DNA of 64,000 bases, taken from contig CAWEWF010000002.1 of NCBI GenBank assembly GCA_963812605.1, positions 64,001 to 128,000 of the forward strand, given 5' to 3'. Position 1 is the stretch's first letter. The number at the start of each line of letters is the position of its first letter. Shown piece by piece: positions 55,770 to 60,442 of this stretch. Under the pieces are notes generated by a model. The model searched no databases. It saw only the letters and a list, made by a program, of their open reading frames with translations, and was not told where the DNA came from. Made by a program: the position numbers and the translations under genes. The DNA is from an uncultured Verrucomicrobiae bacterium (GTDB lineage: Bacteria > Verrucomicrobiota > Verrucomicrobiia > Palsa-1439).

Positions 55770-57052
<1,283 letters not shown>

Positions 57053-57094: not shown

Positions 57095-60000
57095 TCAGAA
57101 GCCTATGATTTTCGGCGCTGCGGCAAGGGCCTCGGCCAATTTTTCAGGTTGCTTGCCACCGGCTTGGGCCAGATCAGGCTTGCCGCCGCCACCGCCACCG
57201 CAAATCTTCGCCAGTTCGCCGACGATCTTGCCGGCATTTTTGCCCTCTTTGACCAGGTCGGGTGTAACCATGCAAATAAGCGAAACCTTGCCTTCCGCCA
57301 CGCCACCCAAAACCACAATCCCGCTGGTCAGCTTCGGCCTGAGCGCGTTGACGATCGCCCGCAACAGATCGGCATTCGCATCGCCAAGATTACTCACGAG
57401 CAACCGGCCCTGCAATTTCGGCAGCAACTGCTCGGCCATGGCGGGCGCCTGCGCTTCCATCGCGGCCTGGCGTTGCTTGGCCAACTCTTTCTCCATCTCG
57501 CGCGCCCTGGCTTTCTCCGCCTCAGCCTTTTCCTGGTCGCCTTGCTTCGCAATAAATTCCTGGGCAAATTGCCCACAGACCGCTTCGACGCGACGAATCC
57601 CCGCCGCCACGGCCGATTCGCGCATGATCTTGAACAGGCCAATCTCGCCCGTGGTCTTCGTGTGCGTGCCGCCACAAAGTTCCATCGAAAACCCATCCAG
57701 CGCCTTGTCGTGTCCGCCAATCTGCACGATGCGGACGATATCGCCGTACTTGTCGCCAAAGAACTGCATGATATTCGGCTTCCCACGCACTTCCGCAAAA
57801 GGCATTTCAAACCAATACACGGGCAATGTTTCCTTGATCCGCTCGTTCACCAGCTTCTCAATGTCCGCGATCTGCTGGTCACTAAGTTTCTCGGGTTGGT
57901 TGAAATCAAAACGAAACCGGTCCGGCGCCACCAGCGACCCCTTCTGCCGCGCGTCCTTGCTCACGACCTCATGCAACGCCCAATGGAAAAGATGCGTGAC
58001 GGTATGGTGTCGCTGGATATTCGACCGTCGCGGCACATCCACTGCCGCACGGACTTTTTGGCCGACCTCCGGTAGCGCGAGCCTCTGGCTTGCGGTCGTT
58101 TGGCTTGCGGTCGTTGCCTCAGAGCGATGAACGTACACGTTCCCCTGTTTCTGCGTGTCGTGAACGACCGCAACCGGGACGGTCGCGTTACCCGGCGAAA
58201 AGATTAGCCCCGTATCCCCCACTTGACCGCCCATCTCCGCGTAGAACGGTGTCCGGTTGAGGATGACGTTGAAAGTCCTCTCCGCTCCTGGGGATACGGC
58301 TTCCACCACAGCTTCAACTTCGAGATTGTCATAACCAAGAAACTTCGTTGGCTCAACCTGCAGATTCTCGGTCGCAACGCTAATCACGGACTTCTTTTTT
58401 TCATGATCCTCGCGTGCCCGTTGCCGTTGCTCGTCCATCAATTTCTCGAAGCCAGCGGCATCAACGGTAAAACCTCGCTCTCGCGCAAGCAATTCCGTGA
58501 GATCGAGGGGGAATCCAAAGGTATCGTAGAGCACAAACGCCTCGTCACCACGAACCACGTTGTCGATGGGACGTTCTGGTTGCGGCATGCCCGGGGATTT
58601 CGGGCCATATGAGATGTCCACATATTTGTTAAAGTGCTCAATCCCGCGATCTAGTGTGCGGTTAAAGCTTTCCTCTTCTGCTTTAAGCAACGTCTCGATT
58701 TTTGCCTTATTGCGACGTAGTTCAGGAAATACTCCTCCAAAATTCTCCGCTACCACATTCACCAGTTTATAGAAGAATGGCTCGCGTAACCCGAGATTGC
58801 GTCCATAACGGACAGCGCGGCGGAGGATGCGGCGCAGGACGTAACCTCGACCCTCGTTCGAGGGCTGGATTCCATCAGCAATCGCGAAACTCAGGCAGCG
58901 GATGTGATCGGCAATGACGCGGAAAGCGATGTCGATTTTAATTTGTTCTTCTGATGGTGGCGCAAGCGTCCCTGCTTGCGGTTGTTCACTTGAGCCACCC
59001 GTTTGTCTGGCATCGATCACGACACCCAGCGTTTCCGTCGAGTGCCAGAACCATCGATATGCCTCCGGCCGTTCCGCCAATTGTTTCTTGACCGCGTTGT
59101 TCGCAATGTAATTCCACTTCTCTTCGTATTCCGCTTCATCGCGCACAATGCGGTCGTAGCTTTCGTGCTGCCAAACTGGACCAATCCACTGCCACTTCTT
59201 TTGAATCTGATTTGCCGTATATGACTTGATGCCGTGAAGCACCTCGCTCAGGGCGTGAAATCCCCTTTGCGCAACCGTCTGCGGGGAAGAAGCGTCGAGC
59301 GGAAGCGGCCACACCAGCAGATGAACGTGATCCGGCATCACCGTCACAGCGCGCAGGTCGTATTTACTCCCGTGCGAATGATGGCAGGCTTCCAACACAC
59401 AGTCGCGCATTTCGGGGGTCAATTCTCTCCGTTGATGCGTTCGAAATGTGACGAAATACACTGCACCAGGAGATTGCCAATGAGGAAGGCGGCGTTGGGA
59501 AACCGAGAATTGTTTGATGCCATCAATTGATTCGCAAGCAGGGACGCTTGCGCCACCCAAACCACCCGCAGGCAGCGTCCTGGTGTACTTCTTTCCGCTG
59601 AGCTCCTCCAGTTGGCGGAAGATCGGACTGAAGACATCGGTCTCGTAGTTGGAGATTCTTCCGGTGAAATCCTTGAAGCCGTTCGTGCATTGGATCATCG
59701 AACACACACGCTCGAAACCCATGCCGGTGTCCACGTGTTTCGCGGGCAATGGTTCAAATGTACCGTTGGGTAAGGCATTGAACTGAATGAACACGAGGTT
59801 CCATATCTCGATGCACAACGGGCTGCCGGAATTGACGAGCTTGGCGCCGCCGTCGCCGTTGAGAGTGAGGTCGAGGCTTATCTCGCTATTCGGTCCGCAA
59901 GGGCCGGTATCGGCCATCATCCAGAAATTATCTTTGCGGTTGCCGGGGACGATGTGGTCAGCGGGCAAATAGCGCAACCACAAGTCGCGCGACTCGAGGT

Positions 60001-60442
60001 CCGCGGGGGCCTTCTCGTCGCCGCCAAAATATGTCGCGTAGAGCCGTTGCTTGGGGAAATGCCATCTCTCAACGAGAAGTTCCCATGCCCAATCGATGGC
60101 TTCCTTCTTGAAATAATCGCCAAAGCTCCAATTGCCCAGCATCTCGAAGAATGTGTGGTGATACGTGTCGAGGCCGACGTCTTCGAGGTCGTTGTGTTTT
60201 CCGCCGGCGCGGATGCACTTCTGCGTGTCCGCAGCGCGTGTGGGCGAACCGGGGATGGCACCCGGCCATTTGTCCACGTCGGGTGCGCGCTGGCCGAGAA
60301 AGATCGGCACAAACTGGTTCATCCCCGCGTTGGTGAACAGCAAGTTCGGCGCGTCCGGCAGCAACGAACCGGACGGCACGATGGTGTGCTGTTTTTCGCG
60401 GAAAAAATCGAGAAAGCTCTGGCGTATTTCGGCCGAAGTCAT
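57095..60442 (-). CDS. alaS: Alanine--tRNA ligase with an in-frame inserted RAYT/Y1 transposase domain
   Basis: LFTNAGM, HHTFFEMLGNWSFGDYFK, EIWNLVF.Q, DTGMGFER, IADH.R, GYVLRRILRR, LYDTFGFP, HHTVTHL, ELCGGTH, GGGGG DHHA1; 1115 aa uninterrupted. Confidence 0.96.
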   Translation of the reverse strand: MTSAEIRQSFLDFFREKQHTIVPSGSLLPDAPNLLFTNAGMNQFVPIFLGQRAPDVDKWPGAIPGSPTRAADTQKCIRAGGKHNDLEDVGLDTYHHTFFEMLGNWSFGDYFKKEAIDWAWELLVERWHFPKQRLYATYFGGDEKAPADLESRDLWLRYLPADHIVPGNRKDNFWMMADTGPCGPNSEISLDLTLNGDGGAKLVNSGSPLCIEIWNLVFIQFNALPNGTFEPLPAKHVDTGMGFERVCSMIQCTNGFKDFTGRISNYETDVFSPIFRQLEELSGKKYTRTLPAGGLGGASVPACESIDGIKQFSVSQRRLPHWQSPGAVYFVTFRTHQRRELTPEMRDCVLEACHHSHGSKYDLRAVTVMPDHVHLLVWPLPLDASSPQTVAQRGFHALSEVLHGIKSYTANQIQKKWQWIGPVWQHESYDRIVRDEAEYEEKWNYIANNAVKKQLAERPEAYRWFWHSTETLGVVIDARQTGGSSEQPQAGTLAPPSEEQIKIDIAFRVIADHIRCLSFAIADGIQPSNEGRGYVLRRILRRAVRYGRNLGLREPFFYKLVNVVAENFGGVFPELRRNKAKIETLLKAEEESFNRTLDRGIEHFNKYVDISYGPKSPGMPQPERPIDNVVRGDEAFVLYDTFGFPLDLTELLARERGFTVDAAGFEKLMDEQRQRAREDHEKKKSVISVATENLQVEPTKFLGYDNLEVEAVVEAVSPGAERTFNVILNRTPFYAEMGGQVGDTGLIFSPGNATVPVAVVHDTQKQGNVYVHRSEATTASQTTASQRLALPEVGQKVRAAVDVPRRSNIQRHHTVTHLFHWALHEVVSKDARQKGSLVAPDRFRFDFNQPEKLSDQQIADIEKLVNERIKETLPVYWFEMPFAEVRGKPNIMQFFGDKYGDIVRIVQIGGHDKALDGFSMELCGGTHTKTTGEIGLFKIMRESAVAAGIRRVEAVCGQFAQEFIAKQGDQEKAEAEKARAREMEKELAKQRQAAMEAQAPAMAEQLLPKLQGRLLVSNLGDANADLLRAIVNALRPKLTSGIVVLGGVAEGKVSLICMVTPDLVKEGKNAGKIVGELAKICGGGGGGKPDLAQAGGKQPEKLAEALAAAPKIIGF
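58071..58094 (+). repeat. GTAG-type REP-like hairpin inside alaS, overlapping a 15-bp tandem duplication (58086-58115)
   Basis: GGTAG-CGCGAGC-CTCTG-GCTTGCG; TGGCTTGCGGTCGTT x2; encodes TTASQTTASQRLALP. Confidence 0.7.
58956..58980 (+). repeat. REP element, left arm of a 25-bp inverted pair
   Basis: GGTGG-CGCAAGC-GTCCCT-GCTTGCG, internal 7-bp hairpin; exact reverse complement of 59533-59557. Confidence 0.92.
59533..59557 (-). repeat. REP element, right arm of a 25-bp inverted pair
   Basis: Plus strand CGCAAGCAGGGACGCTTGCGCCACC. Confidence 0.92.

Follow-up and report, generated by a model that had tools for sequence, protein, structure and literature searches.

A REP-flanked RAYT transposase encoded in frame within the alanyl-tRNA synthetase gene of an uncultured Verrucomicrobiae bacterium

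Transposases of the RAYT family (REP-associated tyrosine transposases; REP, repetitive extragenic palindrome), such as TnpA-REP of E. coli (PDB 4er8), are known as stand-alone genes with their own start and stop codons. Here we describe a stretch of 64,000 nucleotides (the window) from an uncultured Verrucomicrobiae bacterium of the lineage Palsa-1439 (GenBank assembly GCA_963812605.1, contig CAWEWF010000002.1, positions 64,001 to 128,000 of the forward strand), in which a RAYT lies inside alaS, the gene for alanyl-tRNA synthetase (AlaRS). The element shares with known RAYTs a match to their hidden Markov model (HMM), the HUH motif and tyrosine, the predicted fold, inverted GT[AG]G-footed REP hairpins, and dispersed REPs in the genome, but it has neither a start nor a stop codon of its own and is read as AlaRS residues 292-498. 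We consider it probable, at roughly 0.7, that this REP-RAYT-REP module is resident in frame in an essential gene, unspliced, and expressed only as a fusion with its host protein; it would then be translated, escape processing, act as a nuclease, and work on REPs.

Short palindromes translated within functional genes have precedents. Intragenic REPs (the GTAG/CGTC repeats of Opitutus terrae and others) and Rickettsia palindromic elements are in frame and translated, tRNA synthetases being among their hosts, according to passages of PMC3733652. Both REP arms described here are likewise in frame inside a functional alaS. Those elements carry no gene, whereas the alaS insert holds the transposase itself within the host open reading frame (ORF). 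The same passages mention no RAYT within an ORF; Additional file 3 of that paper, on target ORFs, may list some.

Two further systems invite comparison. Inteins with homing endonucleases are, like the alaS insert, nuclease-coding selfish elements placed in frame in essential proteins and scattered sporadically among close relatives. They have a Hint splicing domain, whereas the alaS insert is without Hint, encodes an HUH/Y1 enzyme of the single-strand type, ends in REPs, and is apparently kept in the mature protein. IStrons, which join an IS200/IS605- or IS607-type element to a group I intron, make insertion into a gene harmless (abstract of PMC4227781), and they share with the insert a Y1-related transposon and harmless insertion into genes. 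Their harmlessness comes from RNA self-splicing, whereas the alaS insert has no detected ribozyme and its harmlessness would come from in-phase translation in a permissive loop. A survey of RAYTs discarded unexpectedly long proteins as fusions or annotation errors, as stated in PMC6006769. A literature search, limited by its wording and by the library it covered, found no description of a host protein with a RAYT or Y1 transposase read in frame within it, and an in-frame transposase passenger in essential genes appears to be undescribed so far.

If the reading given above is correct, translation as an extra domain in a permissive loop would be a third route by which a transposase can reside harmlessly in essential genes, beside the two known routes of protein splicing (inteins) and RNA splicing (introns, IStrons). 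It would offer a concrete mechanism by which RAYTs persist so puzzlingly over long times, in single copy and by vertical descent, and would explain those aminoacyl-tRNA synthetases that are annotated with a "transposase" domain and discarded in surveys as fusions or errors. It would also mark natural permissive insertion sites in AlaRS, valyl-tRNA synthetase (ValRS), PurH, and other enzymes, and provide natural examples of HUH nucleases working, or at least folding, as internal fusions.

The alaS gene and its insert

As an earlier note on this DNA had described it, alaS is a single open frame of 1115 codons plus stop on the minus strand (57095-60442), insert included. The window protein scores 798.5 bits against the alanine--tRNA ligase equivalog TIGR00344 (cut-off 457), has Pfam matches to tRNA-synt_2c, tRNA_SAD, and DHHA1, and covers the AlaRS model in two blocks, positions 1-255 and 262-847. 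A second intact alaS, with this copy decaying, had been named in the earlier note as an argument against shelter in an essential gene; the 4.17-Mb, 15-contig assembly contains one alaS locus. The layout is as follows, in window coordinates.

57095..60442, minus strand: alaS, one 1115-codon ORF containing the insert (ORF and TIGR00344; sole alaS)
59570..60442, minus strand: AlaRS residues 1-291, aminoacylation domain ending ...LSGKKYTRTLP (Pfam/HMM positions 1-255, Aquifex comparison)
59495..59569, minus strand: linker 1, residues 292-316, including a translated REP arm; predicted disordered (AlphaFold2 models)
59533..59557, minus strand: gene-proximal REP arm (GGTGGCGCAAGCGTCCCTGCTTGCG on the coding strand), read as GGASVPAC (inverted repeat, folding, translation)
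59051..59494, minus strand: RAYT (HUH/Y1 nuclease) core, residues 317-464 (HMM, alignment, AlphaFold2, Foldseek)
59321..59329, minus strand: HUH motif codons H372-V-H374 (RAYT alignment, translation)
59108..59110, minus strand: codon of Tyr445 (WNYIANN), invariant across RAYTs, presumed nucleophile (alignment; catalytic role taken from the family)
58949..59050, minus strand: linker 2, residues 465-498, including the second translated arm, QAGTLAPP; predicted disordered (AlphaFold2 models)
58956..58980, plus strand: gene-distal REP arm, exact reverse complement of the other arm (inverted repeat, folding)
57095..58948, minus strand: AlaRS residues 499-1115 (tRNA-recognition, editing, and C-Ala/DHHA1 parts) and stop codon (HMM positions 262-847)

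In the AlaRS of Aquifex (PDB 1riq, 3htz) both flanks are contiguous, SGKKYG258 running directly into E259KFETDVALRVIADH, and the whole segment 292-498 is therefore an insertion. It comprises about 207 codons in phase with alaS on both sides, corresponding to 211 residues relative to Aquifex AlaRS and to 201-202 codons more than the empty alleles of relatives, in line with the 200 or so extra codons first estimated. The insertion point, which we take to be the junction of the aminoacylation domain and the helical tRNA-recognition domain, lies 46 residues beyond AlaRS motif 3 (GMGFER, 240-245), not just after that motif as the earlier note had placed it.

The insert is bracketed by the perfect 25-nt inverted repeat already reported in that note (58956-58980 and 59533-59557, spacing 552 nt). 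With up to 3 mismatches allowed, the arm pattern is confined to these 2 places within the window, and no match turned up in any of 100 shuffles. Folded as single-stranded DNA, each arm forms a hairpin of 7-8 bp (-7.6 to -9.1 kcal/mol, z -1.7 to -3.1), and the GTGG feet of both arms are on the outer sides, as had been proposed. Both arms are indeed read as protein, GGASVPAC at residues 296-303 and QAGTLAPP at 489-496, and in the full-length AlphaFold2 (AF2) model pLDDT falls below 50 for residues 288-325.

The stand-alone organization of a RAYT gene, with its own start and stop, is absent here. No ATG lies between codons 281 and 327 of alaS and no stop codon ends the RAYT domain, both as claimed earlier; the only alternative starts, TTG295 and GTG328, both lack an obvious ribosome-binding site. 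Without start and stop signals of its own, the module would be made solely as part of AlaRS.

The 211-residue insert scores 83.1 bits against NCBIfam REP_Tyr_transpos NF047646 (cut-off 80; 80.4 for the whole protein), and the Y1_Tnp (PF01797) check that the earlier note had suggested gave a match, though a narrow pass at 23.5 bits against a cut-off of 23. An insertion sequence of the IS200/IS605 TnpA type was rejected, NF033573 reaching only 23.1 bits against a cut-off of 55. The protein motifs quoted previously were all located between residues 317 and 451: RRLPHW at 317-322, YFVTFRT at 329-335, MPDHVH at 369-374, KSYTA at 406-410, WQHESYDRIVRD at 424-435, and WNYIANNAV at 443-451. In a 22-row RAYT alignment (the window insert and 21 others), the insert keeps all 10 invariant columns, including H372, H374, and Y445. 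The RAYT-invariant tyrosine is thus Y445 of WNYIANN and not the Y of KSYTA, another of the motifs quoted previously.

A PDB sequence search with the insert returned 0 matches, and a fold search was therefore used. The AF2 model of the insert alone has a core pLDDT above 90 and a pTM of 0.70, its low-confidence ends being the REP-encoded stretches. The best Foldseek match in the PDB is 4er8_A, the E. coli RAYT-REP complex (E 1.3e-8, TM 0.64 normalised to target length, rmsd 2.8 A, 146 columns), followed by ISDra2 and IS608 TnpA. Judged by profile model, conserved residues, predicted fold, and REP association, the insert belongs to the RAYT family, and the transposase inside alaS looks complete and functional. 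By a whole-protein search the cassette is present only once in the genome: one RAYT-like place, on contig C6, is 41% identical, and the other places were absent among the matches listed.

The insert resembles an intein in its in-frame position in an essential protein and in its sporadic distribution. An intein was rejected, as no Hint or intein family appeared in Pfam at E<=0.01 for either the whole protein or the insert, in keeping with the lack of Hint motifs noted earlier. A group I/II intron or an IStron was rejected as well. An Rfam scan by E-value of 58700-59800 detected no intron or ribozyme, and its sole match was a chance-level snoRNA (17.5 bits against a gathering score of 48).

Filled, empty, and mixed alleles among relatives

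We searched 40 related genomes in six frames; the genome of the window is designated G000, and other G numbers denote relatives. The same kind of in-frame insert is present in two other species of the genus, G001 and G009; in most of the remaining species the site is empty and 14-23 residues long. A protein search limited to long proteins gave 14 AlaRS among 40 matches. Thirteen AlaRS have an insert near this position, and in all 11 that could be anchored (11/11), G001 and G009 included, the RAYT is at the same site; the remaining 2 were skipped, as the anchor patterns did not match. A further AlaRS, P0032, carries a RAYT in a second variable loop (P0001 residues ~609-630), a site also used in genome G211, so that RAYTs occupy this loop in the G211 and P0032 lineages. 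The same second loop holds an unrelated insert in G009, roughly 60 aa longer than in G000, and a low-complexity insert in G012.

The recurrence of the site bears on a concern raised in the earlier note, that the fusion might come from a chimeric assembly. The assembly is unfinished (15 contigs, completeness 89.96) and the adjoining serS is broken by two frameshifts, features that could favor an assembly chimera or sequencing artefact. The same architecture is nonetheless found in 11 independent AlaRS records, and valS inserts (see below) in 41 species genomes, including a chromosome record and a 4.38-Mb contig. For practical purposes these records refute such an origin, and by this comparison the alaS insert is not an assembly artefact.

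The first alaS site accepts other material as well. REP-like filler without a RAYT stands there in G013, G021, and G025, taking the form of a REP doublet in G013, and across relatives the loop accepts unrelated filler of 14-50 residues. G000 and G001 share identical arms, although their RAYT proteins are only 67% identical; in G009 the arm pair is of another, GTAG-footed type, and identity of the RAYT drops to 47%. Beside the right arm of G009, just before DQIKIDIA (locus L022), there is a degenerate GTGG REP of the G000 type, as though one element had displaced another at this site or inserted beside it. In G001 the insert-bearing alaS (L023, G001:C51:62000-68500) is broken downstream near query residue 755, into 772 aa and 352 aa in another frame. 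No second alaS for G001 was among the matches listed, and the break is probably an assembly indel.

A dN/dS estimate, which the earlier note had recommended, was obtained from raw pN/pS with a Jukes-Cantor (JC) correction, chosen because synonymous sites are saturated; pS is 0.69 or less in two of the three insert comparisons. For the insert, the G000-G001 pair yields a pN of 0.191 and a pS of 0.688, hence a dN/dS of about 0.12, and the AlaRS flanks give about 0.09. Against G009 the synonymous sites of the insert are saturated, and pN is still far below pS. These substitution patterns indicate that the insert is under purifying selection similar to that on its flanks. The earlier note had proposed either recent insertion or selection. 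The first part is not supported, the insert being 47-67% identical at the amino acid level between species of the genus; a diverged insert with intact arms points to long-term selection.

The tolerance of the loop for filler, REP-only remnants among it, would also fit a decaying relic, a dead transposase serving as neutral filler in a variable loop. We regard this as very improbable. It is disfavored by the dN/dS of about 0.12, all family-invariant residues are retained, and the arms, perfect in the window, are also conserved in 50 of the 54 embedded loci described below.

When the insert is left out of the alignment, filled alleles are scattered over the resulting AlaRS tree (30 rows), and G000, G001, and G009 each have an empty sister. 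Within the genus alaS is a recombination mosaic, in which the nearest relative changes every few dozen codons (sliding window, part up to residue ~620). The closest relative of G000 along the gene (loci L010-L028) is G006 at the 5' end, at 98%, then G001/G016, and then G004. Flank co-conversion left no clear signal in the junction window, where G009, G007, and G002 gave 0.83, 0.82, and 0.81. Two observations stand: close species differ in the presence or absence of the insert, and a single site is occupied by two RAYT/REP lineages.

RAYTs inside other host proteins

An exhaustive profile-free search with the insert gave 5539 representatives at E<=0.001 (50% clustering). Among the best 150 of the 5539, the RAYT stands alone in 73, is internal in 38 (at least 100 residues on both sides), and is terminal in 39 (on one side). 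The hosts of the 54 representatives of at least 400 aa are AlaRS (11), class I synthetase/ValRS (8), PurH (6), Ham1/RdgB (5), and RecG-type helicase (4-5), with single cases of PriA, BirA, an Hsp70-type protein (DnaK), a glycyl-radical enzyme, and ThiE, plus DNA methylases and restriction enzymes. The search for further hosts with internal Y1 domains suggested in the earlier note was thus productive, adding ValRS, PurH, RdgB, RecG, PriA, BirA, and DnaK to AlaRS.

At the DNA level, species-representative genomes were scanned with a ValRS-type RAYT as query, which gave 80 loci from 80 species genomes. The RAYT is embedded in 56 of them: 41 in valS, 6 in Ham1, 3 in alaS, 3 in purH, and 1 in a type ISP enzyme, with the host unassigned in 2. 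The valS-insert records bear mostly Phycisphaerales/Phycisphaeraceae titles, the chromosome record and the 4.38-Mb contig included. In the other 24 loci the RAYT stands alone: a Met directly precedes RRxLPHW, and the domain is followed by a stop. Every RAYT found within a host gene is in phase, and out-of-frame interruption of an exemplar host gene was seen at none of the 24 stand-alone loci.

The arms are conserved along with the domain. Flanking inverted repeats of at least 16 nt occur at 50/54 embedded loci (median 26.5 nt), compared with 0/54 shuffled controls, and footed perfect hairpins at 41/54 left arms and 41/54 right arms, compared with 58/1080 control windows. Between species, the arm stems at embedded loci differ by paired changes.

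These observations allowed us to weigh the possibility that the insert is removed before AlaRS works, by cleavage of the linkers, by removal at the RNA level through arm pairing, or by frequent DNA excision that yields mixed alleles. The arms are perfectly complementary over 25 nt, both linkers are predicted to be disordered and hence protease-accessible, and Y1 transposases of the IS200/IS605 family excise precisely (abstract of PMC5027513). We nevertheless consider removal quite improbable. There is no Hint/intein family and no intron/ribozyme family in the insert, and removal before translation would make phase and stop avoidance needless, yet all host-embedded RAYTs are in phase, and the stand-alone loci show no out-of-frame break of an exemplar host gene. 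Contigs joining the two flanks directly were absent from 4 DNA runs, in which coverage was thin. The option in the earlier note of a cassette that is looped out and excised, taken as a requirement for AlaRS function, gains no support; its conserved phase and the purifying selection on it speak for an insert that is read.

A FastTree phylogeny of 186 RAYT domains, which has 136 columns only and leaves many forks unresolved, sets this subfamily apart from 17 ordinary RAYTs of the window's phylum with support 99. Host labels are strongly clustered on the tree (53 changes compared with 111 in shuffles), and the PurH and PriA clades have support 98 and 100, respectively. AlaRS-embedded RAYTs form two groups matching the two AlaRS sites, with a single BirA copy nested inside the AlaRS set. 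The module belongs to a distinct RAYT branch, characterized by the N-terminal RRxLPHW, and in genomes labelled Verrucomicrobiota or Planctomycetota many members of this branch lie inside housekeeping genes. A broader proposition would see here a mobile-DNA lifestyle not recognized before: a clade of REP/RAYT elements that ride obligatorily and in frame in essential proteins, much as inteins do but with no splicing, persist at the level of orders, and are lost only by exact excision. Their hairpin ends would serve as peptide linkers too, and the transposase would be produced solely as an internal domain of AlaRS, ValRS, PurH, RecG, PriA, and others. This proposition seems to us evenly balanced.

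The same distribution must be set against the view that the RAYT is a domesticated domain serving its host, perhaps as a tether between AlaRS and single-stranded DNA or in REP-dependent genome maintenance, and is no longer mobile. We judge this view unlikely, although purifying selection is as strong as on the flanks, valS residence has been long across many Phycisphaerales-labelled species, and RAYTs cluster by host gene; it could also draw on the argument that RAYTs in general are domesticated, single-copy genes, as put forward in the abstract of 10.1101/119735. An AlaRS-specific role, one of the options of the earlier note, is weakened by the occurrence of the same module in at least a dozen unrelated hosts. 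Moreover, the insert is present or absent among species of one genus, two RAYT/REP lineages occupy one alaS site with G009 keeping a degenerate REP of the other type, and a BirA-embedded copy sits among AlaRS-embedded ones. The REP arms, too, are kept, as expected of an element that recognizes its own ends.

Within the phylum, 9 of the 150 matches listed in a survey lie in open frames of at least 400 aa; 8 were fetched and 5 resolved by the filter. These five are a spurious high-GC frame, a frame through REP arrays, an AlaRS of the second-site type, a frame with a restriction-modification-like N-terminus at a contig start, and a C-terminal fusion. In locus L067 (G214:C112:19500-27500), an 851-aa frame runs through long translated REP-like arrays on both sides of the RAYT. 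The start of this frame is presumably a low-molecular-weight phosphatase/ArsC-type protein, and the frame may be a read-through rather than a real fusion.

Persistence of the module and the REP family of the genome

Three options had been left unranked in the earlier note, and the one that fits best is that of a selfish or persistent element residing unspliced in alaS: the frame is open in every lineage seen, no Hint, intron, or ribozyme was detected, and alaS is the sole copy. From translation onward, the steps of the following account are ones that we infer. The HUH/Y1 domain would fold independently, hanging at the junction of aminoacylation and tRNA recognition, and the REP hairpins would have a double role, as DNA sites and as flexible peptide linkers. 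Selection would preserve the nuclease activity, the catalytic residues, and the DNA ends. Most probably the nuclease would act on single-stranded REP hairpins of its own genome's family, spreading or maintaining them, and would occasionally move or delete its own cassette. Cutting and maintenance of REPs are suggested by analogy with the RAYT-REP complex and IS200/IS605 enzymes, and occasional excision of the cassette at the DNA level is possible. Residence in an essential gene would provide constitutive expression and would shield the module from every inactivating mutation except exact deletion, because nonsense, frameshift, and imprecise-deletion mutations would kill alaS.

The arms belong to a REP family dispersed in G000, with 87 copies within 5 mismatches of the consensus, or 67 by a degenerate pattern; a reversed-pattern control gave 0 matches in all 18 genomes. 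Stem variants are compensatory, and head-to-head pairs occur 29-47 nt apart (start to start). Among 8 RAYT-like places examined in G000, only the alaS RAYT is flanked by this REP family. Elsewhere in the genus the counts range from 0 to 26, and the sisters with empty alaS, G006 and G012, have 1 and 3 copies. A link between REP abundance and the alaS insert is suggestive only.

Several results weigh against the reading of an unspliced in-frame resident or restrict how far it can be taken. REP abundance does not track the insert strictly, G013 having 26 copies without a RAYT in alaS and G001 having 9 with the insert. The commonest REP stem in G000 is CACAGGC, and the arm stem CGCAAGC has only 3 exact copies. 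A stop-free REP as an adaptation to translation was ruled out, since all six frames were stop-free in 9705 of 20000 shuffles too. The full-length AF2 model is poor (pLDDT 61, pTM 0.38), too poor to place the nuclease relative to the active or tRNA site. Aligning the AlaRS of relatives, as the earlier note had proposed, did reveal empty alleles, but the junctions of the closest filled/empty pair, G009 and G007, do not form a clean footprint. Our count of at least 8 gains/losses on the AlaRS gene tree was dropped as unreliable, because alaS is a mosaic within the genus and the number of events is therefore uncountable. Transposition is inseparable from allele exchange, and recombination is as good an explanation of the scattered alleles. 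Public DNA contigs match the stretch at 100% (X1 record 2, 59322-59579; X2 record 5, 58930-59080), each extending less than 31 nt past an arm; these short contigs may stem from the source sample and were not used as support. No RNA run was found among the listed runs holding the stretch. Some of the "embedded" database proteins may be read-through gene calls, given that 1 of 5 inspected long frames was spurious. Finally, the assembly has indel-type breaks in the adjoining serS, and the 1115 unbroken codons of alaS are therefore more notable, not less.

The serS gene (55770-57052, minus strand) is directly downstream of alaS and is split over three frames by two frameshifts ~75 nt apart, near 56640-56720. 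It is the sole serS in the assembly (1 copy), and the frameshifts are therefore probably assembly indel errors rather than signs of a pseudogene. Upstream of alaS the gene order cinA-thpR-recA is ordinary, and this neighborhood, which the earlier note had mentioned, yielded no lead.

The CGCAAGC variant of the REP is dominant in G013, G007, and G009. In G000, 46 of the 87 REPs lie inside open frames of at least 300 aa, compared with 1340 of 2000 random 25-mers (67%). This depletion from genes is mild, and avoidance of genes by REPs was rejected for that reason. Four long ORFs with in-frame REPs (L074-L077) are located at G000:C6:63656-66976, C1:371861-374446, C4:215738-218011, and C11:2703-5333. 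Individual cases include a REP in an ORF matching Mfd/TRCF, read as the peptide QAGTPAPP at aa 314, REPs in an AIR-synthase/FGAR-AT (PurL-type) ORF (TGRDACAT) and in a DUF255 thioredoxin-like ORF, and an 877-aa ORF without a Pfam match that has three REP copies. These in-frame REPs within G000 genes agree with the intragenic REPs of the verrucomicrobium Opitutus terrae, as presented in passages of PMC3733652.

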